A stretch of 64,000 nucleotides of DNA, from NCBI GenBank assembly GCA_902560445.1, contig CACELO010000002.1:66468-130467 (forward strand), in the 5' to 3' direction. The notes under the pieces are model-generated. The model was not told the DNA's origin. It ran no database searches and saw only the letters and a program-made list of their open reading frames with translations. This document shows, piece by piece, positions 8,995-32,815 of the stretch (position 1 is the stretch's first letter; each line of letters begins with the position of its first letter). This stretch comes from an uncultured Candidatus Poseidoniales archaeon. GTDB taxonomy: Archaea > Thermoplasmatota > Poseidoniia > Poseidoniales > Thalassarchaeaceae. The translations under genes and the position numbers were made by a program.

Positions 8995-9926
8995 CTTTCA
9001 TTCATCTCCCCTGCGAGTTCTCGGCCAATGTGTCGCATACCCGAGGAAAGTCGTACAGCAATTTTGTCTCCATCCTGTATTGAGGTGACGCTGATGTTTC
9101 CTTCTTCATTGATGAATCGAACAGTTTCGGCCTGTTGTACTAACACTTGTGCCGATTGATTATCACAATCAAATCTGATTAAAAGAAACGGCCTTCTTTC
9201 GATTTTCAAGCGGCCGATAGTAGCGCTACGGGTTTCTCCTGAGAAGTTTGCGATTGCTACCTGATCTCCTGAGGTCAATTCGCTGAGATATTTAGTTGAG
9301 CCGTTAGCCATCAAGCAGTAGGCGTGAACTGCCCCCGCATTAATACGAAATGGCCTAGAAGGAACAAATTCGGAGGGAATGGTTTCTCCATGAATCAAAA
9401 CTAATGCATTTGCAGAAGACCCGATTAGCATACCTTCTCCATCGGTTAGCCTCTCTGTCAAATCAATACAGATTCGTTCCCCCACACCTCCCGATTCTAT
9501 GTTAGTAACATTCCCTAAAACAAATGATTCAGTTACATTTCCACTTTCAGGTTGAACTGAATTCCTTTGTCCAGATATCTCCTCTGCGGCATTCCACAAT
9601 TCTTCATCAGCATGAAGCAATAATGCATCCACTCCATGTTGCAGTGCGAATGCAGCTCCGCTAAGATCTACGGTTTGTGAAATTGCAGCTGCAATTCTAG
9701 TTCCACTTCCTGCAGCTGCGGCTACAATGTTCTCCAAAGGAATCATTGTCCAATCCGAACATCGAACCAAAATCCAATCAATCATACCAACAAGTGAGAC
9801 TGCCTCGTCTTGGCCATAGAAATCATCCAAGTGAACTTCGGCCACATCGTAGTCTGAAGATTTCCAAACCCTATCTGCCCTAAGAGAAAAATCCGAGGAT
9901 TCTTCACTTTCAAGCCACAACTGCAA
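8991..9926 (-). CDS. aroB': 3-dehydroquinate synthase II (archaeal AroB')
   Basis: GMLIGSSANALVLIHGETIPSEFVPSRPFRINAGAVHAYCLMANGSTKYLSELTSGDQVAI closely matches the methanogen DHQS-II block. Confidence 0.85.
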   Translation of the reverse strand: MQLWLESEESSDFSLRADRVWKSSDYDVAEVHLDDFYGQDEAVSLVGMIDWILVRCSDWTMIPLENIVAAAAGSGTRIAAAISQTVDLSGAAFALQHGVDALLLHADEELWNAAEEISGQRNSVQPESGNVTESFVLGNVTNIESGGVGERICIDLTERLTDGEGMLIGSSANALVLIHGETIPSEFVPSRPFRINAGAVHAYCLMANGSTKYLSELTSGDQVAIANFSGETRSATIGRLKIERRPFLLIRFDCDNQSAQVLVQQAETVRFINEEGNISVTSIQDGDKIAVRLSSGMRHIGRELAGEMNER

Positions 9927-9930
9927 GTAA

Positions 9931-10749
9931 TCACCCTAAATATTCTGTAGCCTCGACAGCAGTCTTTCCTTCGTGAATTACCGCTTTTAGAGCCTGAATA
10001 TGAGAGGCTGGATTATTTGCTCCAAATACCTGTCTTCCCATACATACTCCGGCGCCACCCACCGAAATTGACTGCTCGACAATATCAAGTAATTCTGTGA
10101 ATGAAGTTCCACGTGGACCGCCAGCAATTAGAATTGGAATAGGCACTGCCGCACATACTTCAGCAAAAGATTCTACATCACCTGTCCATGGAACTTTGAC
10201 AACATCACAACCTAGTTCCCAAGCAACTCTTGCGGCGTGAGCAATCCCTCCAGTATTGTCATCATCAGAGACAATTAGATTTGGCCCTCGAGGGTATACC
10301 ATACCTAGTACAGGCATTCCGAGGGAAATTGCTTCACCGGTTAAGGCCCCCATTTCAACAATCATTTCCGGTTCGTATTCATCACCGAGATTAATCTGAG
10401 CCGAACATCCCGTTGCTCCTCGAAATAGACATTCTTCTGCGGACGCTACTCGCACTTTGTCTCCTGCACGTTCACCAGCATGTTGGGTAGAAACAGAGAC
10501 GTGACAAACAAAGCGATTCCATCCGGTCCTCTCAAAGTGATGACTCAAGGAGCCTTTCTGGAGAATAATTGCATCGGCTCCCGCTTCGATACATGAATCG
10601 ACGACTTCGTCCATCCTTTCAAGACCCTTTTCTGGATAACCAGATATGCCATGATCCATAGGAATCCAAACACCCTTCCCATCTGGAAGTAAGCGAGCCA
10701 ACCTCTCGAATAGGGTCTCGGCCATGGAATTCCGTCTACACTCCCTCAC
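9931..10749 (-). CDS. aroA': 2-amino-3,7-dideoxy-D-threo-hept-6-ulosonate synthase (ADH synthase, AroA'; DhnA-type class I aldolase family). The ORF start at 10749 is a GTG; the likely true start is the ATG at about 10725 (MAETLFERL...).
   Basis: WIPMDHGISGYPEKGLER...AGADAIILQKG DhnA-aldolase signature. Sits immediately upstream of aroB'. Confidence 0.8.
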   Translation of the reverse strand: MRECRRNSMAETLFERLARLLPDGKGVWIPMDHGISGYPEKGLERMDEVVDSCIEAGADAIILQKGSLSHHFERTGWNRFVCHVSVSTQHAGERAGDKVRVASAEECLFRGATGCSAQINLGDEYEPEMIVEMGALTGEAISLGMPVLGMVYPRGPNLIVSDDDNTGGIAHAARVAWELGCDVVKVPWTGDVESFAEVCAAVPIPILIAGGPRGTSFTELLDIVEQSISVGGAGVCMGRQVFGANNPASHIQALKAVIHEGKTAVEATEYLG

Positions 10750-18418: not shown

Positions 18419-20566
18419 TCAGTCTCTCCGACTAGCCATCGCTGCACCTAGAAGAGCCAGAGCACCAAGTATTGGACCAAATCCTGGCAATACAGGCGGA
18501 GTAGCTGATGATTCTGACGAATACAGGGAAGCCCAGGTATCGTAAAACTCCATCTTGTCAATCTCCTCACCATCATAGTCGCTCCATTCAACAGACACCT
18601 CATCTCCTGGCGAGACCAGTCCGTCCCCATCGTGATCAGTGTAAGTAATCGTAACACCTTCCGCTTCTCCACCGGTTAGTGGGATGCTGAATTCGTTTGT
18701 GCAAGTACTTAGATCCGGCTGAACCATTTGGTCTTGATCCTCGTCATAAAACTCCTCACAGTCGCTGAGGAAGTGAACTTCGAAGTCGGTGATCGGAGCG
18801 TTGAGTGTCTGATTCTCCGCGACAAATCCGGTAGCGTCATTTCGCTCCATACCATCACCATCATCATCACTGTCGTCGTCATCATGGTCATGGTGCCTGT
18901 CAGCATCATCGTGAGTATGATCGGCCCCATCATCATGGTCATGATGATAGTCTCCATCTCCATGGTGGTGGTGACCTGCATCTTCTTCTGTTTCATGATG
19001 GTCGCCATCATCACTGTCGTCGTCATCACTGTCGTCGTCATCAGATAACATGTCCACAATGCCATCGATGAAGCACTGCATCTCGTCGATGTCGATTAGG
19101 TCGCTTCCATCGTAGTCGCAATCTTCGAACAGGATTGAGACCTCGTCGTAATCCAGTTCGGGGTTTGTTGCATTGGAATCCCAGGAATCCTGGAACTCTT
19201 GGAAACTCATGTATCCATCGTCATTTGCATCTACAGATTCCATAGCCTCTTCTGGAGTAGTGGAGCCATCGCCATCATCCTCTGAACCTGACCACTCGTC
19301 TCCGTCCGCAGAGTGCTCGAATTCCTCGCTCTGTCCGAAGTCGTCAGTGCAGTGCCAGTCTGAGTCATGGTATTCACAGTAATACCACCAATTTTCCCAG
19401 TCCTCATCATCCTGAGATATCTTGCACCACCAACGAGAATCCTCTCCTGCATCAGTAGCATCAGAGTAACCCTCCCATTCGCAGTAGCCGTCATGATAAC
19501 TGTCCCAACTGATATGATTGCCATCATCATGGTGGCCGTCGTCATCGTACTCATCGGAACCGTCCTCGCAATTTTCATAGCCGTCATTCACCCAATCCCA
19601 AGGAATCCAAGTATTCCCACCATCGCATGGGAACATCTCTTCTGAGTCGTCATCACCGTGGTCATCGTGGTCGTTGACATCGTTGAATATCTCAGAATCA
19701 AACCAAACTGGAATCGAGGTTCTTGGAAGTGTGTCATCCACCTCGATGACTATTGCATCTCCCCACATCACCTCATACGTTAGTGATGAGGTCGCAGAGC
19801 CGTTGTCGCTTTCTATGCTCATGGACATAAGGTCTTGATTCTGATCTATGTGAATGGTCATAGTAATCTCTGCTCCACCCTCCGTATACTCCATTGTCAT
19901 TGTCTGGGTTTCCATATCATCACTCATAGTGATTGTAATGACTGCGTCTTCTGGTAAGTCACCATCATCATCATCATCATCCCCATCATCATCACCTCCA
20001 TCATTGAAGAGTCCGGCCTGTTCTGCGATTACCTCCAAAACATTGGGGGTTGCATCTCGAGTTTGATAGGAGCCGGTTGTTGCCTCTCCTTGAACCATCA
20101 TTCCGCCCACCAACAGGTGGACATTGACAACCTCGCCGACCTGCACATGAGTATATTCCATTTGCAATAACCCTGCAATTGAAATTGAGTTGTGAACATA
20201 GACTGAGTCATTGTCAAGATCCGCCATTACAATGTCCTCTATCTCGACATCCATCTGCATCCCCAAATCTTGGTTCCACTCGCTCGATGAAATCGACTGA
20301 GAGTATCCTGCCTTCGGACTCTCTTCTAGCATATCTTCGATACTTCCCATATCAGTCATGGCCTCGATGAAAGTCTCCGTGGTGGCTATGTAAATACAGT
20401 CTCCAACTAACTCGGCCGTGGCGTTTTCTTCGTAATTGGCTGCATTCTCGTCCATACATCCTAAGACATCGTCAACAAGTTCTTCCAAATCTTCACCAGA
20501 AAGGCAACCTGCCATTGGAGTAGCTATCAAAATTAGGCTAGCGAGTAAGGCATACGCGCGATTCAT
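18419..20566 (-). CDS. Highly acidic secreted protein with His/Asp-rich low-complexity tracts, an EF-hand-like Ca-binding loop pair and a canonical PGF-CTERM archaeosortase sorting signal
   Basis: Signal peptide MNRAYALLASLILIATPMAGCLSGE. DANDDGYMSFQEFQ (DxNxDGxMxxxE) and DYDGSDLIDIDE loops. HHETEEDAGHHHHGDGDYHHDHDDGADHTHDDADRHHDHDDDD tract. C-terminal PPVLPGFGPILGALALLGAAMASRRD. Confidence 0.7.
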   Translation of the reverse strand: MNRAYALLASLILIATPMAGCLSGEDLEELVDDVLGCMDENAANYEENATAELVGDCIYIATTETFIEAMTDMGSIEDMLEESPKAGYSQSISSSEWNQDLGMQMDVEIEDIVMADLDNDSVYVHNSISIAGLLQMEYTHVQVGEVVNVHLLVGGMMVQGEATTGSYQTRDATPNVLEVIAEQAGLFNDGGDDDGDDDDDDGDLPEDAVITITMSDDMETQTMTMEYTEGGAEITMTIHIDQNQDLMSMSIESDNGSATSSLTYEVMWGDAIVIEVDDTLPRTSIPVWFDSEIFNDVNDHDDHGDDDSEEMFPCDGGNTWIPWDWVNDGYENCEDGSDEYDDDGHHDDGNHISWDSYHDGYCEWEGYSDATDAGEDSRWWCKISQDDEDWENWWYYCEYHDSDWHCTDDFGQSEEFEHSADGDEWSGSEDDGDGSTTPEEAMESVDANDDGYMSFQEFQDSWDSNATNPELDYDEVSILFEDCDYDGSDLIDIDEMQCFIDGIVDMLSDDDDSDDDDSDDGDHHETEEDAGHHHHGDGDYHHDHDDGADHTHDDADRHHDHDDDDSDDDGDGMERNDATGFVAENQTLNAPITDFEVHFLSDCEEFYDEDQDQMVQPDLSTCTNEFSIPLTGGEAEGVTITYTDHDGDGLVSPGDEVSVEWSDYDGEEIDKMEFYDTWASLYSSESSATPPVLPGFGPILGALALLGAAMASRRD

Positions 20567-21833: not shown

Positions 21834-22721
21834 TCAATTTCGAGTCCAAGATGGAATGAATACATCTCTCCAATTCGGAGTTGCAAGATATTCTTCCTCG
21901 GTAAAGAATGACCTTGCATAAATCGAAATAAAGTCGATAATTAGAACAACAATGTAGATAATAATCAGGTATGCAAATACCTTGTCATATTGTAAAAATC
22001 TAAGATACAGATCGATGTAATATCCAATTCCTCCTGCACCGACAATGCCGATTACAGTACCAGAACGGAAATTATATTCAAACATGAATATCGAGTGAGA
22101 AATTAGATCATTTGCGGCTTCAGGAATAACTACGTTAACTGCTACTTCCCAACGACTCAAGCCTATTGCATTCGCCGCATCCAAAGGAGTTTTTGTCAGA
22201 CCCTCAATTGATTCATACTGTAATTTTCCAAGATATCCCACTGTGTAAATTGTCATTGCCAGAACGCCAGCTAATGGACCTAAGCCGACTAGAATAACCA
22301 AGAAAATAGCCCAAATCAATGCTGGAAGACTCCTACATGCTGAGATAAGAAAGCGGGTAGGGTAAGATATCCATCGCGGGCTTAAATTTCTTGAAGCCAT
22401 GATTGACAAAGGTAATGTTACAACCATACCAAATACAGTTGCAACAAACGCAATCTTTAGCGTCTCAATAACTCCCTTCCAAGCGGTTGAGCAAGTGAAA
22501 TCGAAAATTGGTTGGGCAGTACAAACAGGATATGTTTGAGGCTCTAGAACGCTCATATCTGGTGGCCAAAGAGACTGAAAGAAGAATCTGACAAGATTAT
22601 CTGGGCCACCTGCTAATCTACCCCAGTCGCCAACCATTCCGTTTAGAATTACAATTGCAAGCAAAAGGAGAATCCATAGCACCAGAGCCATCTTTTCGCC
22701 ATCTACTGCTATCTTCTTCAT
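21834..22721 (-). CDS. ABC transporter permease, PhnE-like (phosphonate/phosphite-type family)
   Basis: 6 TM helices. EAA-loop LDAANAIGLSRWEVAVNVVIPEA. Confidence 0.75.
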   Translation of the reverse strand: MKKIAVDGEKMALVLWILLLLAIVILNGMVGDWGRLAGGPDNLVRFFFQSLWPPDMSVLEPQTYPVCTAQPIFDFTCSTAWKGVIETLKIAFVATVFGMVVTLPLSIMASRNLSPRWISYPTRFLISACRSLPALIWAIFLVILVGLGPLAGVLAMTIYTVGYLGKLQYESIEGLTKTPLDAANAIGLSRWEVAVNVVIPEAANDLISHSIFMFEYNFRSGTVIGIVGAGGIGYYIDLYLRFLQYDKVFAYLIIIYIVVLIIDFISIYARSFFTEEEYLATPNWRDVFIPSWTRN

Positions 22722-23428
22722 GAATTCAACACCACAGCTTTTGGTTTGGTAATGAATGGATTCACTCTTCCATCATCAATAACTAGGAGGCGATTTGCCA
22801 TTGACTTGGCTCTAGAAATATCATGCTCGACAACGATTAATGCTGAATTATTATCTTTCACGTAGCTTGTCACGCTTTCCAAAACCATAGCCAATGTTTC
22901 TTCGTCTAATTCACTCAAAAATTCATCTGCTAGAATTAATCTTGGTCGCTGAGCCAATGTTCTGGCCGTTGCGACTCTTCTCTGTTGGCCACCGGACAAC
23001 CTCCTAATTGGTTCTCTTGACTTTTCCTTAAGCCCCATTTGTTGAATTGCATTGGTAACTCGTTCCTTTCTTTCCTTCCTATCATTAGTTCCAGCTCGAG
23101 CACCCAACATTACATTGTGCCTAACACTTGCATGACGAACTAAACCCAATTTTTGTGGAATATACCCTAGTGCGCCACGGAGAGGTTTCGACGGAATTTC
23201 TGCACCACACACTGTGATCGAACCGGAAATTGGACGTATTAGTCCCGCAATTGTACCAAGTAAAGTTGACTTCCCGATACCAGAAGGGCCCGCTATGGCC
23301 ACTATTTCACCAGGGAATATTTCGAGATTGGGAATACTGACTAAGGGTGATTCAGTTTCATATCCGATTACTATATCTTCGAGGGAGACAATCGGATTTT
23401 CTGAACCCATACCCTCGGACAACTCCAA
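22718..23428 (-). CDS. ABC transporter ATP-binding protein, PhnC-like. The ORF starts on a TTG at 23428; the ATG at about 23410 (MGSENPIV...) is the likelier start.
   Basis: Walker A GPSGIGKSTLL, signature LSGGQQRRVATARTL, Walker B LILADEFLSELD. Overlaps the permease gene by 4 nt. Confidence 0.8.
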   Translation of the reverse strand: MELSEGMGSENPIVSLEDIVIGYETESPLVSIPNLEIFPGEIVAIAGPSGIGKSTLLGTIAGLIRPISGSITVCGAEIPSKPLRGALGYIPQKLGLVRHASVRHNVMLGARAGTNDRKERKERVTNAIQQMGLKEKSREPIRRLSGGQQRRVATARTLAQRPRLILADEFLSELDEETLAMVLESVTSYVKDNNSALIVVEHDISRAKSMANRLLVIDDGRVNPFITKPKAVVLNS

Positions 23429-23441
23429 AGCCCCCTTGTAA

Positions 23442-23457
23442 TTTAGGCGGCCCTAAA
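23442..23457. promoter_or_regulatory. 16-bp palindromic candidate operator TTTAGGCGGCCCTAAA upstream of the PhnC-like/PhnE-like ABC genes
   Basis: Perfect TTTAGG-N4-CCTAAA palindrome. Sits 30-45 nt upstream of the probable ATG, next to an AT-rich CCAATATATGG element. One of four copies in the window. Confidence 0.55.
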
Positions 23458-23514
23458 CCAATATATGGTATTGATGGGTTTAGTGATAACAAAATATCTT
23501 ACGAATCAGATAAC

Positions 23515-25611
23515 TTATATCGATTCTTGCAAGAATGAATAGGCTCCGGGTACAACACTTACCACCTCAGATAGCAAGCCAAGATGTTCTTGTGAATTTG
23601 TTCTAACAATCCCTGTACCATCGAGTATATTGTTTAGAATTTCATCACCACAGATTTCCCTATTATTATCTGAATTTACCTTGTGTGTAGAAATATCGTA
23701 ACAACCAGTATATGTTCCAAATCCGGGTCTAGAATAATTCTCTAGATACATCTGATAATTCAAAGTAACTAAGGCGTTGAGAATAGCGGCTCTACTTCTA
23801 GAATCAAGAGTCGAAGGGTTGTACATTACAGATTCACTTGGAGACACACCGACTTGACCCAAAGATAGGTACTGGTCAATTTCCATGCACCAATCTTGAT
23901 TTTCTTGTTCTTCTTGATTACAATTTTCTTCTAGTGCATCTTCTCCGACGAATGCTATTTCACTTACATTTTCGGATAGGCAGCTAATCGCACCTACCTC
24001 TCCCGCAGGGGTGCTTGAAGATGAAAGAAGAGATGATTGATTTCCAAAATAGCCGCGTATTGTTTCGATAATCTCGACATTTTCTTGATTAGGCGAATAA
24101 TACTCATTTTCAATTAGATAATGAATAGGAAGAATTGTGTGAATTGGAGATTGAGAACCGGTGAAGCAAGACACTCTTCCCTGCATCATTGCAAATGGAT
24201 CGGTGCTAGATTCATTGTCTGAACTTGCGGTAGCCAATTCTCCTAAATTTGAGACTAAGGCCATAGAATACCGCTGAGTCAATTGATCTTTGTTTTGTAT
24301 GGCTCCTAGAACTGATAGATTATGTAATTTCCATCCAATTAACGAAGAAGATGAAGGAAGAAATCCAATATGAGCCTCGCCTGTTTCAATTGATTCAATC
24401 ATTTCTGATTGAGAATTAACATAGTGAATTGAAACATTAATTCCTAATTCTATGGATAAAAATTCGGCTAAATGAATCGGGTCACTATTGGTTTCTAATT
24501 TTGATTCATCTAGTTCAAATGCAACAATTAATTCTTCTATTGTTATTGTTATTGATTGACTTCCATTGTCGGTATAATAAGCTGAAATCCCAGGGATATT
24601 CGAAACCAGAGGCGTGTATATACCAAGATGAGATTCAGAATCTGTAGAAACTACACCCTTTGTCCCTAGTGTGTTGTAGAGAATTTCGCTGTAATCCTCG
24701 TTTGAACTAAAGTCAATTAGAAAATCCGTAAGTTCACTGATTACTAAATCATCATCAAAATTAGAATGAGTCATGAAAACATCACTGGGGGTCTTAGCGA
24801 ATGGTTCGAGAGAAACATATCTCGAGGCATCCAAACACCATTCTTCGACATTATTTCCATTTTCTGTGGTGCAGTATTGAGAGGCCGTGTTATCCTTCGC
24901 AAATGCAACCTCACCGGAACCATCTGAAAGACATCTTAGAGCCCCTGAAAATCCATAGTACTGTGTGCCAGGTTCCGGAATTGATGAGTTTTCGTTAAAG
25001 AATTGAAAAATTGTATTTCTTAGAGATTCGATATCATTTGGATCGCCAATTACATTTGCATACCCCAATCCAAGGAAGAATCCCATTGGAACCATCATTC
25101 CTGTTGAGTGTAACCAACCCGTATGGCAGGAAGTTTTGCCTTGCATCAGTGAGAATGGATTTGTTAGCGGATCATCGTCAAAATATGCTTCTGCGATATC
25201 GCTATCGTCGAGAACCCAAGCGAGAGAATTGTAGTATGTCCTGCCGTCTGATTTTTGGTCCGCTGCAAAAGCCTGCAAACCGTATTGATTCCACCCAATC
25301 CAAGCAGCACCGCTATCCATTAGAGCGATGTCGGCATTTCCAAACCTTAGTGCCTCGAGTATCGCTGCTTCTGAATCAACGGCATATATTGTAAAATCAA
25401 ATCTACTGTTTTGGGTAAGAATTTCTGCCAGCATCTCAGGATTAGTTTCTGACTCAAGCATACCTTCGGACACTTCGAATGCCAGAACAATGGGAGTTCT
25501 TGTTTGATTATTTGATTCTTCAGAATCACTCAAGCAACCAGAGAGAGTGCTAGAAAGCAGGATAATGGTATAACAAATGACCAGTATTTTGTAATGTCTT
25601 TTTGTCGGCAT
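23515..25611 (-). CDS. Bilobal transferrin-family substrate-binding lipoprotein (N-lobe near-canonical, C-lobe degenerate); first gene of an SBP-ATPase-permease operon
   Basis: Signal/lipobox LLSSTLSGCLSD. N-lobe: GNADIALMDSGAAW, RTYYNSLAWVLDDS, QGKTSCHTGWLHSTGMMVPMGFFLG, TQYYGFSGALRCLSDGSGEVAFAKD, EEWCLDAS...FAKTPSDVF. C-lobe repeats the same order of blocks (QGRVSCFTGS..., GEVGAISCLSENVSEIAFVGED, DWCMEIDQ) with the ligand residues lost. Confidence 0.75.
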   Translation of the reverse strand: MPTKRHYKILVICYTIILLSSTLSGCLSDSEESNNQTRTPIVLAFEVSEGMLESETNPEMLAEILTQNSRFDFTIYAVDSEAAILEALRFGNADIALMDSGAAWIGWNQYGLQAFAADQKSDGRTYYNSLAWVLDDSDIAEAYFDDDPLTNPFSLMQGKTSCHTGWLHSTGMMVPMGFFLGLGYANVIGDPNDIESLRNTIFQFFNENSSIPEPGTQYYGFSGALRCLSDGSGEVAFAKDNTASQYCTTENGNNVEEWCLDASRYVSLEPFAKTPSDVFMTHSNFDDDLVISELTDFLIDFSSNEDYSEILYNTLGTKGVVSTDSESHLGIYTPLVSNIPGISAYYTDNGSQSITITIEELIVAFELDESKLETNSDPIHLAEFLSIELGINVSIHYVNSQSEMIESIETGEAHIGFLPSSSSLIGWKLHNLSVLGAIQNKDQLTQRYSMALVSNLGELATASSDNESSTDPFAMMQGRVSCFTGSQSPIHTILPIHYLIENEYYSPNQENVEIIETIRGYFGNQSSLLSSSSTPAGEVGAISCLSENVSEIAFVGEDALEENCNQEEQENQDWCMEIDQYLSLGQVGVSPSESVMYNPSTLDSRSRAAILNALVTLNYQMYLENYSRPGFGTYTGCYDISTHKVNSDNNREICGDEILNNILDGTGIVRTNSQEHLGLLSEVVSVVPGAYSFLQESI

Positions 25612-25908
25612 TGATCAAAACCTCTGTCTACCCGACTCTTGCTCAGGATGCTGATTTTTCAATGTTAGTCCTGAAGGAAATAACATAATTTTCAGTTTAA
25701 TCCTGGTGTTGACAGGGGAACCTGTGATGTGTACAGATGCTCCTATGTGACGCTGTTAGAGTCCCCCGTGCCAACGGGTATTGCCAATGCTATTGGCTAA
25801 GGTTGTTGACAGGGGGCCTATTGCGTTCGAATACGAAATTCGAATGTAGGTGTCAGGCGCTGATACGCCCCCTGCCAACTGTTTTGTCTTATCGACTGGT
25901 TACGTACT

Positions 25909-27144
25909 TCATTGGAGAGTTCCAATGTCTTCGGCTGTGATGCCAAATGCATCCCAGACTGGCTGTAGATAGGAGCGGATATCCGCTTCGTAATCTGCTG
26001 TTGCATCTCCATCATTCTTCAGATCGAAGATTTCGAGAATCTTGTCATTGTAGTAATTAGCATACCACCCAAATGCCTCGCACTCCTCCTCTGACATACC
26101 CTCATGCTGAGCGTGTGTCACTGAATTATAGCATCCTGTGAATTCCTCTCCACTCGGATCGTTTGGAGAAGTGTAGTTCTCCAGATACATGTATGCCTCG
26201 CAGGATGCCTGTGAGCTATCCGATGAGACCGTGTGAGATACCATGTTGTAGCAGATCGAAGTGTACTCAGCGACATATGCCTCGATTACCCTGTAGAAGG
26301 CGTGACCCTCTGCCTGGTGCTTGTCGTAGTCTGCAGTATCTCCAGCAGCTAGGTCGTCCGTCATCTTTGATGCGTACCTCACAGAAGCCTGTGAGTAGAC
26401 GATTACAATATTCTTCAGAACCTCGTCGCGTGCGTCGACTACTCCTTGCATATCTTCATTCTGAAGTGCAGTCAAGCCAGCGTTCATTGCGGCTAGAGTA
26501 GCGATGTTTGTAGCATCACCAGTCCCAAAGTTGCCCCCTCTCTTGGCAGCGGTTGCATATGGCCCACATCCATCGTAATCATGGTTGGAATCGTCAGGAC
26601 CATGGTAGAAAGCCCATCCTTCGTCCCAAGCGTGTTGAGCGTCATCGGCCCCCCAGTTTCCTGCTTCCGCCTTGATGATTGCAGCGTTGAGTTCATGGAT
26701 TGCATAAGCAGTCATCACACCATTCTGGATTCCCTTTTCGACTGCTTGATCTCTGACTGTGTCAGATTCTCCCTCGAAAGGACCTGTGCCATCAATAGCC
26801 GCAGATACGAAGTCATTCCATGAGCCGTCTGCATCATAGTATGCGTCGTAGGCGTGGTTCTTGCCGGAAGCATCTGCGAAGCCCATGAGGGTCCTGTAGG
26901 AACCGTCGGACTTCTCCGCGTGCTTTCCATCATCATAGATATCCTTCACACCGTCCCAATCGTATGCACCAGAGAGGTCCTTAATATCGCAGACATCACC
27001 CATTAACATTCGGTGATTATCAACGTTGGAAGCATACGTGTATCCTCCATCTGCGTCATCAAGATCTACATCATCTCCTGCACAACCGGCAATCGCACTG
27101 CCGATTAATACTAAAGTCATCATTAAAGTCATTGTTCTATTCAT
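25909..27144 (-). CDS. Secreted lipoprotein, Asp/Tyr/His-rich, unknown function (possibly imelysin/EfeO-like and iron-related)
   Basis: Lipobox LVLIGSAIAGCAGDD. HQAEGH (HxxE) and HAWDEGWAFYHG motifs. Two palindromic operator copies sit in its promoter region. Confidence 0.5.
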   Translation of the reverse strand: MNRTMTLMMTLVLIGSAIAGCAGDDVDLDDADGGYTYASNVDNHRMLMGDVCDIKDLSGAYDWDGVKDIYDDGKHAEKSDGSYRTLMGFADASGKNHAYDAYYDADGSWNDFVSAAIDGTGPFEGESDTVRDQAVEKGIQNGVMTAYAIHELNAAIIKAEAGNWGADDAQHAWDEGWAFYHGPDDSNHDYDGCGPYATAAKRGGNFGTGDATNIATLAAMNAGLTALQNEDMQGVVDARDEVLKNIVIVYSQASVRYASKMTDDLAAGDTADYDKHQAEGHAFYRVIEAYVAEYTSICYNMVSHTVSSDSSQASCEAYMYLENYTSPNDPSGEEFTGCYNSVTHAQHEGMSEEECEAFGWYANYYNDKILEIFDLKNDGDATADYEADIRSYLQPVWDAFGITAEDIGTLQ

Positions 27145-27146
27145 AG

Positions 27147-27162
27147 TTTAGGTCTCCCTAAA
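27147..27162. promoter_or_regulatory. Palindromic candidate operator TTTAGGTCTCCCTAAA, 3 nt upstream of the start codon of the 411-aa lipoprotein gene
   Basis: TTTAGG-N4-CCTAAA palindrome, operator-proximal copy. Confidence 0.55.
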
Positions 27163-27190
27163 CCGGCCGGATAGCGAATCGTATATGAAA

Positions 27191-27206
27191 TTTAGGGCGC
27201 CCTAAA
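27191..27206. promoter_or_regulatory. Palindromic candidate operator TTTAGGGCGCCCTAAA in the divergent promoter region (lipoprotein gene on the minus strand, GDPD-like gene on the plus strand)
   Basis: Perfect 16-bp palindrome. Separated from copy 27147..27162 by 28 nt that include TTTCATATA (TATA-like on the minus strand). Confidence 0.55.
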
Positions 27207-27299
27207 CTCTTGAATCGTGCGTGGAAAATTGTCATATAACTGATGAGCAGTCAATTGAATTGGAGACGAGGTTTTTTTACTCATTTCTATTCGTAAATA

Positions 27300-27905
27300 T
27301 TGGTTTTAGTTACAAGGAGAGGATTAGTCTTGAGGAATTTGGGGCATAGATTGGGGGCTTCTGGTACCAAAATGGAAAATACCATTGACGGGCTTATGAA
27401 TTCATTAGAACAGGTAAATAATAGAAAATTTAAGTATTGGGAATTTGATATTAGAGAATCTTTGGATGGAATAATTTTTGTCTTTCATGATGATCAAATA
27501 CTTGTAGATGGAGAATTAATCGAAACCGCCAAATTGAATTTCTCTGAAATAATGAAAGCGGGTGAGGATTTGGGGGTAAAGATACCTACATTTTCAGAAG
27601 TTGTTGAAATATTGGGTGACCGGAAAGAAGATGTCATGGTTGAAGTGAAAGAATTGAGAACTGATGCCGCTAGAAGAACCGTAATCACTGCGATTTCTAG
27701 TAAACCAAATTGGAAACTGATGGCTACTCCAACTAGATTCTTGGAATCTTTTCCTAGTGAATCCAGGGAGTATTGGGAGCGATTTACTCGAGATTTGGAC
27801 GTAGAATTCGTTAGAGTTGGCCGCCATAAATTGGACCTTTTCAGCGCTTCTAAATCCTATTTTAGGTGGAAATTTGCTCGATTTAAATGGTTTTTCGGGA
27901 TTTAA
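27300..27905 (+). CDS. Glycerophosphodiester phosphodiesterase-like (GDPD family) protein. Likely start is the TTG at about 27329, downstream of a GGAGAGGA RBS.
   Basis: GHRLGASG...ENTIDGL...WEFDIRESLDGIIFVFHDD follows the GDPD HRG/ENT/E-D/HD pattern. Confidence 0.5.
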   Translation: MVLVTRRGLVLRNLGHRLGASGTKMENTIDGLMNSLEQVNNRKFKYWEFDIRESLDGIIFVFHDDQILVDGELIETAKLNFSEIMKAGEDLGVKIPTFSEVVEILGDRKEDVMVEVKELRTDAARRTVITAISSKPNWKLMATPTRFLESFPSESREYWERFTRDLDVEFVRVGRHKLDLFSASKSYFRWKFARFKWFFGI

Positions 27906-27968
27906 TAATGATGACTATTTTGAATTAATTTTTCCTACAATTGATTATGAACCCCATTACTCACCCTA

Positions 27969-28403
27969 ATGTTGAAGAAAATGGTCAGTACTGATGAGTT
28001 AATTGTGGCGCTAAATAATGCTCTCGCTTGGGAATTAAGGGCTATTGCAATGTATGCTCACTATTCCGCATACGTTTCAGGGATTCATAGATTACAACTT
28101 TCGGTATTCTTCAATAATGAAGTAACAGAATCAATTGCGCATGCTTCAACCGTAAGATCCGCTATAGTGAAATTACACGGTAAGGCCACTACGGAGAGGG
28201 CAGAAGACCCTATTTTACACTCAATGGACTTCCGAGATATGTTGGAAGAGGCACACAAAACTGAGTTGAAAGCTAGCGAGACATATGGAGAAATTTTACC
28301 AATGGTTGAGCAAATTGGGGATAGCGAACTTTTTGATGCCCTGGAAGTTATTTACTTTGATGAACTGAGATCTGTAGAAGAATTGAGAATGATGCTTGGT
28401 TGA
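27969..28403 (+). CDS. Ferritin-like (bacterioferritin/Dps-like four-helix bundle) protein
   Basis: LNNALAWELRAIAMYAHYS...EVTESIAHASTVRSAI...EEAHKTELKASETYG: paired E...H / ExxH-like diiron-site spacing typical of ferritin-like proteins. Confidence 0.5.
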   Translation: MLKKMVSTDELIVALNNALAWELRAIAMYAHYSAYVSGIHRLQLSVFFNNEVTESIAHASTVRSAIVKLHGKATTERAEDPILHSMDFRDMLEEAHKTELKASETYGEILPMVEQIGDSELFDALEVIYFDELRSVEELRMMLG

Positions 28404-28429
28404 GATTTAAACATACTATTTACCGTTAG

Positions 28430-28445
28430 TTTAGGGTGCCCTAAA
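28430..28445. promoter_or_regulatory. Palindromic candidate operator TTTAGGGTGCCCTAAA between a TTTAAA TATA-like element and the start of the monolobal transferrin-like gene
   Basis: TTTAGG-N4-CCTAAA palindrome about 20 nt downstream of TTTAAA (about 28405) and about 30 nt upstream of ATG 28476. That placement would overlap the TSS. Confidence 0.55.
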
Positions 28446-28475
28446 CATTATCAAACAAACCGATTTCGGAGATGT

Positions 28476-29546
28476 ATGGAAAAAACTAGTTGGGCTGGTT
28501 GGGCCAAAGCTAACAAAGCACTTTTGCTCGCTGGATTAGTGCTATCTGCGACCGTATTGTATCTCATTTTCGACATTAATTACGAACAATGTGATGATCA
28601 AGATAACTGTATTACAATCGCTTTTGAGGTACAAGATGACTATTTGTATTTTGGAAAAGAGAACCCTCAGCACTTGGCAGACAAAATGAGTGCTCTGACT
28701 GGTATGGATGTTGAAATAATGCCTGTATCGAATTCCGGCGCGATAATCGAGGCTATCAATAATGGCAATGCGGATATTGGATTTGTAGATGGAGCGGCCG
28801 CTTGGCTTGCATGGGAAGTTTACGATTTGGACGTGCTAGCGGCAGAGTGGAAATTTGATCAAAGGACGTACTATAATGCGGCAGCCTGGGTGAAAAAGGA
28901 CTCTGAAATTGCAGACGCGTATCTAGATGATGATCCAGATACAGACCCATTTGCTTTAATGAATGGAAAAACGTCTTGCCATACAGGATGGCTGAAAAGT
29001 GCTGGGATGTTGATTCCAATGGGTTACTTGATTGGAAATGGGTATGCCGAGGTGCGTGGAGATCCTGAAGAAATTACTTCACTACGAGATACAGTGACGC
29101 ATTTCTTCAACGAAGATTCAAGCATACCTGACGGAGGTACTCAATATTCCGGATATAAGGGGGCATTGAAGTGTATGATGACTGATCGCGGAGACGTTGC
29201 TTTAGTCAAGGATACAGCATATATGCTCTACTGTGACGAAAATGAGGACGGAATTGCAGATGGTCCTGATTGGTGTTTGGATAGAGATGAGCTCGTTATG
29301 CTCGAGTCATTTGGTCGAGCACCGAGTCACCCCGCTTTGTATAATCCCTCAGCTATGAATAACGAAACGGTCGAACTAATTCAAAATGCATTGGTGGATA
29401 TGAATAATGATGAAGAAGGTACAAAGATACTCTCCGATGTCTTAAACACTGAAGGAATGGTTGTTACGAATGCTACTGCTCACCTAGGCACATATGGTGC
29501 GGCTGTAGAGAACGTCCCTGGAATACAAGCATTTTTTGAGGATTGA
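28476..29546 (+). CDS. Monolobal transferrin-family iron-binding protein (membrane-anchored/secreted) with a complete Asp/Tyr/Tyr/His ligand set
   Basis: NADIGFVDGAAAW (Asp), RTYYNAAAWVKKDS (Tyr), GKTSCHTGWLKSAGMLIPMG (anion-site Thr; Arg replaced by Lys), QYSGYKGALKCMMTDRGDVALVKD (Tyr), DWCLDRDE...GRAPSHPALYNPS (His). N-terminal TM anchor. Confidence 0.75.
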   Translation: MEKTSWAGWAKANKALLLAGLVLSATVLYLIFDINYEQCDDQDNCITIAFEVQDDYLYFGKENPQHLADKMSALTGMDVEIMPVSNSGAIIEAINNGNADIGFVDGAAAWLAWEVYDLDVLAAEWKFDQRTYYNAAAWVKKDSEIADAYLDDDPDTDPFALMNGKTSCHTGWLKSAGMLIPMGYLIGNGYAEVRGDPEEITSLRDTVTHFFNEDSSIPDGGTQYSGYKGALKCMMTDRGDVALVKDTAYMLYCDENEDGIADGPDWCLDRDELVMLESFGRAPSHPALYNPSAMNNETVELIQNALVDMNNDEEGTKILSDVLNTEGMVVTNATAHLGTYGAAVENVPGIQAFFED

Positions 29547-29592
29547 TCACACAATCCCAACTAGCGTACTGCCACAACGTTGAGGTTTCATA

Positions 29593-30798
29593 ATGAGAGT
29601 GACCATCACTATCCTAATTTTATTGATAATATCTCTATTTTCTGGATGTTTTTCAGACGATGGAGATGATTTTGATTGGACTGATCCCCAAACAACAGAG
29701 TGCAATTTAGGCAATAACCTAACTTGTACTAATTTGTTTCCGGGAGCTGGTACTCCTCATCACTCAGAAGTAAATCCTCAAACTAATGAATTATGGATAA
29801 TTTATCTCAGTGGAATGGTAAAAATTTGGCAAGATGATGAACTAATACAAGCTGGTGACTTAAGTGAAATTGTAAATAGATGCCATACAGAACAAGGATT
29901 GCTTGGATTTGCATTCGATGCCAACTATAATTCTTCCAAACAACTATTGTTATCATATGTGGAAAAAGGCAGCTGCGAAGGGGCGAATAATGCAGACCTC
30001 GTTCTTGCTTCAGTTGTTGTTACTGATGATGATATGATAAATTTGGACTCGTTAATCGTCTTGAAAACCGTAGAACAACCATACAGGAATCATAACGGGG
30101 GGCATTTACATGGTTTGGGTAATGGAGAATACCTCTGGGGAATTGGAGACGGAGGTGGAGCTAACGACCCAGAAAAGAATGGGCAGAATTCTGAAAATTT
30201 ATTGGGCACTATTGTTTACTTCCAATACTCAAATGGCGATGTTAATCCGATAATGGATTCAGAAAATGGAAACCCCTACATCTTGCACTATGGTTTGCGA
30301 AATCCATGGAAATTCGACGTGGGCCCTAATGAGGAACTATGGATTGCTGATGTCGGACAAAATTGTTGGGAAGAAATTAATTTGGTAAATTTGGTAAACA
30401 AATCAAACCTTGGGTGGTCAGAAAAAGAAGGATTCAGTGATTTTTCCGAAGGTGGAAGTTGTGAAGGAGGAGTTCTATCTGAAAATAATGAATTTACAGA
30501 CCCTGTCTTTGTCTATGGTCACAATAACGGAAATTGTTCCATAACCGGTGGCTTTTGGACTGAGAATACAATAATCTCAGACCAAGGTGGTTATCTGTTT
30601 GGAGACTTTTGTTCTGGTTCGCTATGGATTCTTTCCAATGGTGTAAATCACACATGGAAAGAGACCTATCTTGGTAACGTGGGGGGACTAATTGTAGGGT
30701 TTGGAGAAGGGGCTAATGGTGAGCTTCTGGTCTTTTTCTGGACTGGAGAAATCATACAAATCACTCAATCCGCTGCCGCCGATAGCAATATCGTGTGA
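29593..30798 (+). CDS. Lipoprotein of the soluble PQQ-dependent sugar (glucose/sorbosone) dehydrogenase beta-propeller family
   Basis: Lipobox ISLFSGCFSDDG. GLLGFAFD, NHNGGHLHGLGNGEYLWGIGDGGGANDPEKNGQNSENLLGTIVYF and GLRNPWKFDVGPNEELWIADVGQNCWEEINLV match GSDH family blocks. Confidence 0.65.
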   Translation: MRVTITILILLIISLFSGCFSDDGDDFDWTDPQTTECNLGNNLTCTNLFPGAGTPHHSEVNPQTNELWIIYLSGMVKIWQDDELIQAGDLSEIVNRCHTEQGLLGFAFDANYNSSKQLLLSYVEKGSCEGANNADLVLASVVVTDDDMINLDSLIVLKTVEQPYRNHNGGHLHGLGNGEYLWGIGDGGGANDPEKNGQNSENLLGTIVYFQYSNGDVNPIMDSENGNPYILHYGLRNPWKFDVGPNEELWIADVGQNCWEEINLVNLVNKSNLGWSEKEGFSDFSEGGSCEGGVLSENNEFTDPVFVYGHNNGNCSITGGFWTENTIISDQGGYLFGDFCSGSLWILSNGVNHTWKETYLGNVGGLIVGFGEGANGELLVFFWTGEIIQITQSAAADSNIV

Positions 30799-32815
30799 TA
30801 CCTGCTCCAGTATTGTGATGAGACGCCAAGGCGCGCTTAGAATCGTGGTCATGATTACGATTATTGGAATGATGATTTCTTCGTTACAAATCGGCTACCA
30901 ACAAGGTGGTCTTGATGAATCTCAAGACAGAAGAGAACAGCTCGGCCCTGATGAGCCTACACTGGAGGAGCGATGTAGCGTCCTTACTTTCGAGGATATG
31001 TTTGAGTATACTAAAGCAGTATTCAATTTCACTATTGCCAATGATTGGAGTTCTGCCGAAATTGAAGCAGTTGCTTGGGTAAATGGGACTTTGGCAGATG
31101 ATGTAAGACAGAGTTTAGATGAATATATTGCACAAATCTACCCAAGTGGCGATGATGGCTGGATTTCTACCGATGAAAGGGAGGGAGTCAGAGCTATTGC
31201 TTCGGAGTGTGTTCAATACACGTTTACTAGAATGGGTATGCGTGATGGAAGTCCTCACAGAGGAGGTGACGGTACCGATTGGAAAAACACATCTTGGAAC
31301 GAAGACGAGGTCCTAGTAGAAGAATGGAATCTAGTCCCTCCTCGACATTCGGAATCGAGAGAATGTTCAGGGATTGGTAGTGGTAGCGATTGCTACGAGG
31401 TTCCGGTATATCCGGATAGTGAACGAGATTGCGACACCGAGGTAGATTCATCGAGCAGTCAAGATGAATGTAGAATGAAGTTATGGCTAAATGCTACCAT
31501 GATAATCTCCGAGATAAATGATCCAAGTGACTTCACAATAGCCTATAATGCCTCAAACATGAGTGGGGCTGAATATCATATCAAATTCCCCGTAACCGAA
31601 GGACTCCGACTAGATATGTGGGAGGAATGTGAAGGACGAGACGTGCAAGTGGATATGGGTGATTTTGCTGGTGTGGCTCCTCTGAGAGGTAGTTGTATTG
31701 GTGACGGTTCTAGCAGCTATGAACTTAATGAAAACGAAGATGGAAGTCTAACTTACTCCTTCTATCCCAACATGCCTCAGTGGCCTGTAGGAGAGGACCT
31801 GTTTGCCGACTTTACAACTGCACCAATCCCAGTGGACGACCCTCCTGTCTGGACTGATAGCGCACCGACAGATGGAGCCTGGTTCCCTCGTGCGAGTGGG
31901 GGGGCACAGATTATCGCGGACTGGAATGAAGTTCAAAATTGGTTCAATGATGAGGCTGGAGTATCGAACCTTGAGATGAATTGTAGAGGTGATGCAGGAT
32001 TAGTAATTACCTACTCACAACGAGAGTTGTCGATGGATGTACCAAGAGGTCAGGCAGGAGAGGTCACCTGTGAAGCAATCGACAGTTCTGGCCAATCCTC
32101 AGGAAATAGAACTTGGAATGTAGGAGTTCCATTCCAAATTTCAACTACAGATACTGAACTATCAGACCCACATCCGATTACTCTCTCTCCAACCGCTGGC
32201 TGGCCTGATCTATCTGTAGAACTCGGATTTTCCTCAAGCTTCGAAGAGGCAGGAACATATTACGGCCCATATTCAATCCAAGGCTCGGAAATAACTCAAG
32301 ATATTGCTGTGGTGGGACTTGTCCCCGGTCCAGTATATGTCGCTGTAATAGTAACCGGAGAAGGAGTTTATAGTTTGCAAGCGACTTATGATTTGGGGAT
32401 TCAAAAGGCCAGCAGTCCTCCAATAATGACAGTCACCACCGAAGGGTGGGATGGTAATTCATGGTCAATGAGTGGTCAATTCTCCGACCCCGATGGTGAA
32501 ACGATTAGTTTCAGCCTGATGATTGATGGGGCCTCAGTTGGAAGTATTACGGTCAGTGGCAATATGTGGTCTACACCTGCGATTGATTTCTCAGTATGGA
32601 CAGAAGGTTCACATATTGTTGAGGTTCAAGCCTGTGATGAGTCTGGCCTATGTTCAAGTCAGCAACGTAGCGTTGACAATACTCATTTGTTCGTTGATCC
32701 TGAACCTGAACCTGAACCACCGAAGGATAACTCTTCGGTTCTTCCCTCAATGGGATTGGCCGGTCTGATTCTTGCGGCATCTGCCGCACTCATATACTCG
32801 GGCCGACGCGACTGA
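30701..32815 (+). CDS. Large secreted cell-surface protein with a C-terminal PEPEPEPP linker plus hydrophobic anchor (variant PGF-CTERM-like). The true start is probably at about 30815 (MRRQGALRIVVMITIIGMMISSL signal).
   Basis: Internal signal-peptide-like Met. The ORF as drawn overlaps the upstream gene by about 100 nt. C-terminal LPSMGLAGLILAASAALIYSGRRD. Confidence 0.55.
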   Translation: MEKGLMVSFWSFSGLEKSYKSLNPLPPIAISCDTCSSIVMRRQGALRIVVMITIIGMMISSLQIGYQQGGLDESQDRREQLGPDEPTLEERCSVLTFEDMFEYTKAVFNFTIANDWSSAEIEAVAWVNGTLADDVRQSLDEYIAQIYPSGDDGWISTDEREGVRAIASECVQYTFTRMGMRDGSPHRGGDGTDWKNTSWNEDEVLVEEWNLVPPRHSESRECSGIGSGSDCYEVPVYPDSERDCDTEVDSSSSQDECRMKLWLNATMIISEINDPSDFTIAYNASNMSGAEYHIKFPVTEGLRLDMWEECEGRDVQVDMGDFAGVAPLRGSCIGDGSSSYELNENEDGSLTYSFYPNMPQWPVGEDLFADFTTAPIPVDDPPVWTDSAPTDGAWFPRASGGAQIIADWNEVQNWFNDEAGVSNLEMNCRGDAGLVITYSQRELSMDVPRGQAGEVTCEAIDSSGQSSGNRTWNVGVPFQISTTDTELSDPHPITLSPTAGWPDLSVELGFSSSFEEAGTYYGPYSIQGSEITQDIAVVGLVPGPVYVAVIVTGEGVYSLQATYDLGIQKASSPPIMTVTTEGWDGNSWSMSGQFSDPDGETISFSLMIDGASVGSITVSGNMWSTPAIDFSVWTEGSHIVEVQACDESGLCSSQQRSVDNTHLFVDPEPEPEPPKDNSSVLPSMGLAGLILAASAALIYSGRRD

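Follow-up and report, generated by a model that had tools for sequence, protein, structure and literature searches.

How do the uncultured archaea of Marine Group II (MGII) obtain iron? These archaea are among the most abundant microbes of the surface ocean, iron limits much of the ocean, and no description of MGII iron acquisition was found in the literature searched. A 64,000-nucleotide stretch of contig CACELO010000002.1 (the window) contains a gene island at positions 21,834–30,798 that bears on this question. The island encodes a single-lobed (monolobal) and a two-lobed (bilobal) transferrin-family protein together with an ATP-binding cassette (ABC) importer of the PhnC/PhnE type (Table 1). 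The source organism belongs to Marine Group IIb, in the order Poseidoniales. A contig of the metagenome-assembled genome (MAG) Candidatus Thalassarchaeum sp. ALOHA_A2.0_21 (MGIIb-O1) is near-identical to the window; its monolobal protein is 98% identical, and its bilobal gene differs at a synonymous divergence (dS) of 0.005. A look-up for exact copies of the window monolobal protein matched no contig. The island is likely a metal-repressed, high-affinity Fe(III) uptake system, and a transferrin-type system of this kind probably explains how MGII archaea obtain iron.

Both window proteins are members of the transferrin family, as claimed in a preliminary description made from the sequence. The coordinates given there for open reading frames (ORFs), including the 4-nt PhnC/PhnE overlap, were all correct, and every motif quoted was found in the translations. 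It had proposed scoring the proteins with HMMER against PF00405 (Transferrin; gathering cut-off 20.3 bits) and PF12974 (Phosphonate-bd; 27 bits). Both proteins pass both cut-offs, at 73.9 (bilobal) and 64.9 bits (monolobal) for PF00405 and 85.9 and 82.4 bits, respectively, for PF12974. The closest sequence relatives in the PDB are transferrins. In phmmer searches, the monolobal protein had a best E-value of 3e-20, and the 60 matches listed were all ovo-, lacto-, sero-, or melanotransferrins. The bilobal protein had a best E-value of 4e-21, and its 60 matches listed were transferrins and one transferrin-family carbonic-anhydrase inhibitor. No PhnD appeared among the 60 matches listed for either query. 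The lobes have two alpha/beta subdomains around a hinge, the class II binding-protein fold.

The Phosphonate-bd scores, slightly above the Transferrin scores for both proteins, suit a different reading. In it, the island encodes a PhnCDE-type importer of phosphonate, phosphite, or another oxyanion, the transferrin likeness reflects shared ancestry, and the Thr-bearing helix binds a phosphorus or arsenic oxyanion. In structure, AioX, ArrX, PtxB, and PhnD1 lie only slightly further off than transferrin, and JGI and NCBI label homologues as phosphate/phosphonate binding proteins. This reading is nevertheless improbable, because the PhnD cut-offs are missed widely. The two proteins score 40.9 and 30 bits with the PhnD equivalog TIGR03431 (cut-off 261.1) and 67.7 and 46.6 bits with the phosphate/phosphite/phosphonate subfamily TIGR01098 (cut-off 112.05).

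The residues of the binding site also argue for a metal. Residues were matched by HMMER alignment to ovotransferrin and by MAFFT alignment to the human transferrin (Tf) N-lobe; the six landmark residues of the human sequence were checked and found correct. The alignments agree. In the monolobal protein, D105, Y133, Y227, and H285 correspond to the ligands Asp63, Tyr95, Tyr188, and His249 of human Tf, and T170 and K174 correspond to Thr120 and Arg124 of the anion site. The preliminary description had read the same four ligands, the Thr, and a Lys in place of the Arg from the sequence. None of the six varies across 27 aligned sequences, which reach down to 50% identity, and the full set is intact in 101 of 103 monolobal homologues. 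The 27 sequences also keep C168 and C233, the counterparts of the human Cys118–Cys194 disulfide, without change. Lys at the Arg124 position is the common state of ichthyosporean transferrins and of many other lobes among the top matches. At the four ligand positions, characterized PhnD and PtxB have Gly (for the Tf Asp), Tyr, His (for Tyr188), and Asp or Tyr (for His249), whereas the archaeal family invariantly has Asp, Tyr, Tyr, and His, which counts further against an oxyanion. The monolobal protein is thus the predicted canonical iron binder of this genome.

Is a transferrin lobe coupled to the importer? The permease scores 233.7 bits with the PhnE equivalog TIGR01097, above the cut-off of 216.7, and also matches BPD_transp_1; the equivalog score is a point for an oxyanion substrate. 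The best NCBIfam match of the ATPase is TIGR02315 (PhnC) at 132.5 bits, below the cut-off of 266.1. Gene neighborhoods were surveyed in 85 loci, 46 of which contain PhnE. The link to a PhnC/PhnE-type importer, noted in the window beforehand, is kept across Poseidoniales in several gene orders. These are intact bilobal-PhnC-PhnE (L001, L080–L084); monolobal-PhnC-PhnE (L070–L072, L074, L079); PhnE-PhnC divergent from monolobal-GSDH (L033, L036, L038, L043, and others); and the window order, PhnE-PhnC-degenerate bilobal-FEA1 divergent from GDPD-monolobal-GSDH (L005, L006, L069, L011, L014, L019–L021). The order of substrate-binding protein (SBP), ATPase, and permease is seen again in L085, from a Heimdallarchaeota MAG, and in L087, from another archaeon, where the monolobal transferrin is intact. 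In four cases the island lies on contigs of MAGs or single-amplified genomes labelled Rhodobacteraceae, Pedosphaera, Yoonia, and Deltaproteobacteria (L031, L055, L070, L072). Bacterial membership of the family was rejected; these contigs share the gene order of Poseidoniales-titled loci and are therefore probably mis-binned or contaminating archaeal sequence.

The archaeal genes resemble the PhnCDE, PtxABC, and AioX systems in their SBP-ATPase-permease operon, in a permease of PhnE grade, and in site positions that coincide with PhnD contacts. They differ in that the contact residues are transferrin metal ligands, the binding proteins fall short of the PhnD models, and the neighbors and regulator are of iron type. 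Families for phosphonate catabolism (C-P lyase and phosphonatase; PhnWX, PhnYZ) were absent from the 29 window proteins scanned; about 17 ORFs of at least 150 aa lay outside that scan. A survey of single-cell genomes found no phosphonate-consuming archaea, with 80% of its archaea being MGII (10.1101/2020.11.04.368217), a further point against phosphonate import.

The bilobal protein beside the importer has diverged from the canonical site. The six positions read D,Y,T,H,F,D in the N-lobe and P,R,T,S,E,E in the C-lobe. With the anion-site pair left aside, the ligand positions hold D,Y,F,D and P,R,E,E, so neither lobe has the full ligand set, and the N-lobe keeps only Asp, Tyr, and Thr. The N-lobe has an Asp at the position of Escherichia coli PhnD D205, as an oxyanion binder might. 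Elsewhere, each lobe of 87 bilobal homologues has D,Y,T,K,Y,H, and a 1,156-aa trilobal homologue from a marine metagenome (P0126) has it in all three. Both lobes of the window protein are under purifying selection. The ratio of nonsynonymous to synonymous substitution (dN/dS) against close relatives is 0.07–0.08 for the N-lobe and 0.14–0.21 for the C-lobe. A decaying pseudogene is ruled out by these values (0.07–0.21) and by the intact 698-aa ORF. An AlphaFold2 model has a mean predicted local distance difference test score of 81.6, and both lobes model well. The 50 Foldseek matches listed for this model are all full-length transferrins, at template-modeling (TM) scores of only 0.3–0.4.

Degenerate bilobal genes were seen only in loci that also hold an intact D,Y,T,K,Y,H transferrin, without exception. 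L073 has an intact bilobal gene in tandem ahead of a degenerate copy, followed by PhnC and PhnE (L073 9534–14079), and its degenerate protein is 96–97% identical to that of the window. None of the window's FEA1, GDPD, ferritin-like, monolobal, or GSDH genes is present in that locus. Modular as the island is, an intact transferrin is always retained. This constant co-occurrence is taken to reflect duplication followed by division of labor. The degenerate bilobal protein may dock on the permease, take iron from its partner, or bind a different iron species.

A small Cys/Tyr/His module, MYLENY(S/T)xP...TGCY(D/N)xx(S/T)H...C, is common to the C-terminal part of the FEA1-like lipoprotein (aa 299–320 and 339–360) and an insertion in the C-lobe of the window bilobal protein (aa 619–656). 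It is present in one to five copies in FEA1-like lipoproteins. The expression C[YFW][DN]xx[ST]H-x5-16-C matched 29 of 36 FEA1, 10 of 30 bilobal, 0 of 78 monolobal, and 0 of 4,294 other ORFs. The key residues are invariant in 26 bilobal proteins, and the module folds as a beta-sheet in the model. It could bind a metal or serve in docking.

A conserved, strongly structured intergenic element lies just 5′ of the degenerate bilobal gene (Table 1). Its minimum free energy is −96 kcal/mol, compared with −69.9 ± 4.6 for shuffled sequences (z −5.7). Counterparts were found in L005 (6608–6894), L006 (4994–5276), L069 (7140–7437), L073 (11640–11961), L014, and L015. Across these loci the element folds into a single long hairpin or a pair of them, and its 13-bp stem, GTTGGCAGGGGGC...GCCCCCTGTCAAC, never varies and so shows no covariation. 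The element has no Rfam match. The gene that it precedes is the one gene of the island without a preceding TTTAGG-N4-CCTAAA operator.

Do the remaining genes of the island point to iron? The preliminary description had left one secreted lipoprotein unnamed. It is a lipoprotein as described, and it can now be identified as FEA1-related, scoring 358.2 bits with NF038033 (cut-off 250) and 69.7 bits with PF07692 (Fea1; cut-off 25). This family is that of the Fea1/ISIP2a algal phytotransferrin domain, and NCBI labels an identical protein 'FEA1-related lipoprotein [Candidatus Thalassarchaeum sp.]'. A PDB sequence search with it gave no match, and its homologue search was saturated by copies of 98–100% identity, which makes that search uninformative on wider distribution. 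The best PDB match of the small ferritin-like protein is 2qqy (4e-14), and bacterioferritin matches are weak. Its gene lies between the GDPD-like and monolobal genes and is found only in the closest relatives (L005, L069). The GSDH gene begins 47 nt 3′ of the monolobal gene, directly follows that gene in most loci, and is represented by 66 ORFs in the 85 loci; it probably shares the operator-controlled transcript of the monolobal gene. The GDPD-like gene is syntenic, with 43 ORFs across the loci. The iron context proposed from the ferritin-like gene is thus broader, comprising that gene, the FEA1-family lipoprotein, and, in Marine Group III (MGIII), an operator near a DtxR-family gene.

What controls these genes? 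The palindrome TTTAGG-N4-CCTAAA occurs in four exact copies in the window (Table 1), where 0.15 are expected, and no shuffle reached four. It is present in 78 of 84 related loci. The shared operator of the preliminary description is therefore real and conserved in relatives. The 85 loci hold 152 exact sites, of which 150 lie within about 150 nt of a gene 5′ end. With a site between divergent genes counted for both, 73 sites precede monolobal transferrin genes, 49 FEA1 genes, 27 PhnC genes, 23 a 704-aa surface protein (divergent partner), 12 intact bilobal genes, and 9 GDPD genes (divergent partner). The sites at 27147 and 27191 form a doublet 44 nt apart, and doublets at 43–44 nt were seen 19 times in other loci. 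FEA1 operator doublets flank a TATA-like box. The monolobal operator follows a TTTAAA box 30 nt from the ATG and so is placed as expected of an archaeal repressor site.

In the MGIII locus L080, a DtxR-family gene (9235..9969) is divergent from bilobal-PhnC-PhnE, with two TTTAGG-N4-CCTAAA sites between them. Its product has Fe_dep_repress, Fe_dep_repr_C, and FeoA domains. A DtxR-family gene also lies directly 5′ of the intact monolobal transferrin-ABC operon in L087. The operators of L085 and L087 bear no resemblance to the Poseidoniales palindrome. The regulator is most likely a DtxR-family iron-dependent repressor, an assignment carried over to MGII from these relatives. As in DtxR/IdeR regulons, the palindromes overlap iron-uptake promoters and a DtxR-family gene adjoins the operon (in MGIII and L087). 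The bacterial DtxR/IdeR box is a 19-bp palindrome; the archaeal operator, with 6-nt arms and a 4-nt spacer, is shorter. DtxR-family genes beside the operon in L080 and L087, together with FEA1 and ferritin-like neighbors, speak against an oxyanion importer.

The Fe(III) uptake system would work as follows. Surface-anchored transferrin-family proteins would capture dissolved inorganic Fe(III) through the Asp/Tyr/Tyr/His ligands, probably with a synergistic carbonate held by the Thr/Lys helix. The iron would be handed to a type I ABC importer composed of the PhnC-like ATPase and the PhnE-family permease. With such a hand-off, the transferrin fold would act as an ABC substrate-binding protein, not as an endocytosed soluble carrier. 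The canonical iron site would reside on the monolobal protein, and the importer-adjacent bilobal protein would be a diverged paralogue. The FEA1-type and GSDH-type lipoproteins would serve as accessory surface components, with the ferritin-like protein in the same regulon or neighborhood. Expression would be controlled through TTTAGG-N4-CCTAAA sites overlapping the predicted transcription start regions.

Several points weigh against this system. Binding of Fe(III) and carbonate is deduced from residues alone, and the assembly of the six site residues into one pocket is predicted from alignment to known ligand positions. The bilobal protein beside the importer lacks the Tyr188, His249, and Arg/Lys equivalents and the entire C-lobe site. 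The transferrin described beforehand as wired to the importer thus keeps its linkage, which is conserved in sister genomes, while the window copy in that place is without the canonical iron site; hand-off from the bilobal protein is speculative because most of its ligands are lost. About 12 loci with full 10-kb flanks have monolobal-GSDH alone, with no PhnC or PhnE nearby. PhnE-family permeases are known from phosphonate or phosphite transport and are not known to carry metal cations. Neither the window nor the MGII loci examined yielded a DtxR gene, so the regulator assignment comes from one MGIII locus. The DtxR family also includes Mn sensors, such as MntR and TroR.

Such sensors would suit a reading in which the transferrin-type proteins take up a hard cation other than iron (Mn(III)/Mn(II), Al, Ti, a Ga-like ion, or a rare earth) under the control of a Mn-sensing DtxR-family member. 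Solved transferrin structures contain Ti(IV), Yb, Cr, Bi, Al, Cu, Ce, and Ru, according to entry titles. A cation other than iron is even so very improbable. The combination of Asp/Tyr/Tyr/His, Thr, and a basic residue is the Fe(III)-carbonate set in every characterized transferrin, the FEA1 family and the ferritin-like neighbor indicate iron, and the L080 regulator has a C-terminal FeoA/SH3-like domain typical of DtxR/IdeR iron sensors.

As an Fe(III) importer, the system would sit among the ferric ABC importers and the transferrin family. It would share iron-responsive repression with FbpABC, HitABC, and FutABC ('bacterial transferrin'), and also their mode of uptake, in which a binding protein at the surface or in the periplasm takes up free Fe(III), often by means of Tyr ligands and a synergistic anion, and passes it to a type I ABC importer. 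The window proteins do not belong to that lineage, having no Pfam match to the FbpA, FutA, or HitA families. The likeness of FbpA to transferrin is convergent, whereas the archaeal proteins are homologous to transferrin. With eukaryotic sero-, lacto-, ovo-, and melanotransferrins (PF00405), the archaeal family shares its domain, the Asp/Tyr/Tyr/His ligands, the Thr anchor, the Cys118–Cys194-type pair, and a range of mono-, bi-, and multi-lobed forms. Unlike them, the archaeal proteins have Lys in place of the anion-binding Arg (as do ichthyosporeans), and the window bilobal protein has lost the site. They are anchored to the membrane by a transmembrane helix or lipobox and are encoded with ABC genes, in place of a soluble carrier with an endocytic receptor. 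The 411-aa window lipoprotein belongs to the phytotransferrin (ISIP2a/FEA1) family, and two operator copies precede its gene. It differs from algal phytotransferrin as a prokaryotic lipoprotein beside an ABC importer that is not endocytosed, coexists with true transferrin-family proteins, and shares the Cys/Tyr/His module with the bilobal C-lobe.

Where did this transferrin come from? A profile of the monolobal family matched 604 proteins at E ≤ 1e-3 among 1.84 billion representatives, a number too small for the profile to reach ordinary PhnD in bulk. The best matches outside Poseidoniales are transferrins of Ichthyosporea, which are unicellular relatives of animals: Chromosphaera (625 bits), Creolimax (327), and Amoebidium (300), and also Ichthyophonus and Abeoforma. 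Nearly all ichthyosporean lobes have D,Y,T,K,Y,H. One Chromosphaera perkinsii protein of 1,894 aa (P0241) is a five-lobed transferrin with every site intact. Relatives of the monolobal protein also occur in another Thermoplasmatota lineage, Heimdallarchaeota, and Nitrosopumilus. The Heimdallarchaeota (P0349; L085 7429–8412) and Nitrosopumilus (P0362) proteins have D,Y,T,G,Y,H. The Nitrosopumilus protein matches Phosphonate-bd only (150 bits) and not Transferrin, and the Heimdallarchaeota protein matches mainly or only Phosphonate-bd. Aligned to 3p7i and 5o2j, the six transferrin positions of P0362 are the ligand-contact positions of PhnD and PtxB; the PhnD and PtxB residues given above were read through this alignment together with the HMM alignment. 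P0362, P0349, P0350, and P0368 are annotated as phosphate/phosphite/phosphonate ABC binding proteins yet carry Asp/Tyr/Tyr/His and Thr, with Gly in place of the Arg or Lys. In these archaea, 'phnD' annotations may hide metal binders.

A neighbor-joining tree was built with Kimura distances from 67 lobes and 272 columns (100 bootstraps) and rooted on PhnD and PtxB; it is rough, and its sampling is biased toward top matches of an MGII-derived profile. The first lineages to diverge are, in succession, Nitrosopumilus, two further proteins with D,Y,T,G,Y,H, and Heimdallarchaeota (66–95% support). A poorly resolved split follows among a Poseidoniales clade (82–88%), other archaea, and a monophyletic ichthyosporean and metazoan clade (97%). 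The backbone where Poseidoniales, other Thermoplasmatota, and eukaryotes meet has 21–44% support. Lobes 1 and 2 of Poseidoniales bilobal proteins both group inside the Poseidoniales clade, so the archaeal bilobal form appears to be an independent duplication. This fits the packing of the two lobes in the bilobal model, which superposes poorly as a whole on eukaryotic transferrins (TM 0.3–0.4).

A separate question of origin is whether Poseidoniales recently gained a eukaryotic transferrin by horizontal transfer, for example from marine ichthyosporeans or other protists, with the ABC linkage arising secondarily. The closest relatives by score outside Poseidoniales are ichthyosporean, these share the D,Y,T,K,Y,H signature including its Lys, and the tree backbone is weak. 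Such a gain seems fairly unlikely, given that sequences of Nitrosopumilus, Heimdallarchaeota, and other archaea branch successively below the monophyletic eukaryotic clade, with 84–95% support at nodes of this grade. In the two members of the grade whose loci were checked, P0349 of Heimdallarchaeota and P0259, genes for an ABC ATPase and permease adjoin the binding-protein gene. The Pfam scores form a series, from a Phosphonate-bd match alone in Nitrosopumilus to equal scores in MGII, and the bilobal form of Poseidoniales appears to have arisen separately from that of eukaryotes.

The tree favors an archaeal origin of transferrin without settling the question. The preliminary description had suggested an evolutionary intermediate between PhnD-type SBPs and eukaryotic transferrins; the direction of that suggestion agrees with the tree, and the roughness of the tree and its weak backbone leave the matter short of settled. 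One possible history, put forward tentatively, is that transferrin began as an archaeal ABC binding protein, derived from a PhnD-like oxyanion binder that gained Asp/Tyr/Tyr/His, and was passed to the ancestor of the holozoan and animal proteins. Nitrosopumilus and Heimdallarchaeota, with D,Y,T,G,Y,H, and Thermoplasmatota, including Poseidoniales, with D,Y,T,K,Y,H, would then retain intermediate stages. An earlier proposal, based solely on phylogeny, derives transferrin and phytotransferrin from phosphonate-binding proteins (McQuaid 2018, as cited in PMC7676907).

A full-text literature search, with subscription papers outside its scope, found no description of archaeal or MGII transferrins, their ligand conservation, their ABC linkage, or the operator, in line with the earlier remark that no archaeal transferrins were known. 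Database labels for the proteins include 'PhnD/SsuA/transferrin family substrate-binding protein', 'ABC-type phosphate/phosphonate transport system substrate-binding protein', and, once, 'melanoma-associated antigen p97'. Because such labels name transferrin or p97, the similarity has already been noticed by annotation pipelines. What is new is that living prokaryotic members join the transferrin metal site with an ABC-transporter context. The genes are very common in marine metagenomes, where single clusters hold hundreds of members; for FEA1, more than 100 near-identical copies were found. If the Fe(III) reading is correct, the island represents a third route to free Fe(III), beside bacterial FbpA/FutA and algal phytotransferrin. 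Many 'phnCDE phosphonate transporters' of abundant marine archaea would be Fe(III) importers and their annotation would be corrected, which would change how genomes and metatranscriptomes are read for iron versus phosphorus acquisition in planktonic archaea. The proteins offer a way to test, in living intermediates, how transferrin arose from phosphonate-binding proteins, and the conserved operator is a handle on an archaeal iron regulon.

Table 1. Genes, structured element, and operator copies of the transferrin island, in window coordinates
Feature	Position	Strand	Remarks
PhnE-family ABC permease	21834..22721	-	overlaps PhnC by 4 nt
PhnC-like ABC ATPase	22718..23428	-	Pfam ABC_tran 110 bits
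Operator TTTAGGCGGCCCTAAA	23442..23457	.	between bilobal stop codon and PhnC start codon
Bilobal transferrin-family lipoprotein, 698 aa, lipobox LSGC	23515..25611	-	directly upstream of PhnC
Structured intergenic element, two long hairpins	25612..25908	-	upstream of degenerate bilobal gene
FEA1-related lipoprotein, 411 aa, lipobox IAGC	25909..27144	-	NF038033, Pfam PF07692
Operator TTTAGGTCTCCCTAAA	27147..27162	.	abuts FEA1 start codon
Operator TTTAGGGCGCCCTAAA	27191..27206	.	FEA1/GDPD divergent intergenic region
Short GDPD-like protein, divergent from FEA1 gene	27300..27905	+	Pfam GDPD 30.8 bits
Small ferritin-like protein, 144 aa	27969..28403	+	Pfam Ferritin 58.3 bits
Operator TTTAGGGTGCCCTAAA	28430..28445	.	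30 nt 5′ of monolobal ATG, just 3′ of TTTAAA TATA-like box
Monolobal transferrin-type binding protein, 356 aa, N-terminal membrane anchor	28476..29546	+	PF00405, complete site
GSDH-type (soluble glucose/sorbosone dehydrogenase-like) beta-propeller lipoprotein	29593..30798	+	Pfam GSDH 79.6 bits

An Rfam scan of the window detected two tRNAs and nothing else. Scans for sigma-70 promoters and intrinsic terminators gave background levels, and these models are irrelevant for an archaeon. Outside the island, past a tRNA-Leu and a G3P dehydrogenase gene, positions 18419–20566 (− strand) encode a surface protein of 715 aa that has a lipobox and is extremely acidic. It contains long Asp/His-rich runs, for example HHHHGDGDYHHDHDD, and has weak matches to EF-hand, LDL-receptor class A, and PGF-CTERM. 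The composition of its His/Asp runs suggests cation binding. On the other side of the island, positions 32772–33569 (+ strand) encode a protein of 265 aa, rich in Arg and Gly, that contains two zinc fingers of the RanBP2 type (PF00641, 68.5 bits), a domain more familiar from eukaryotes.

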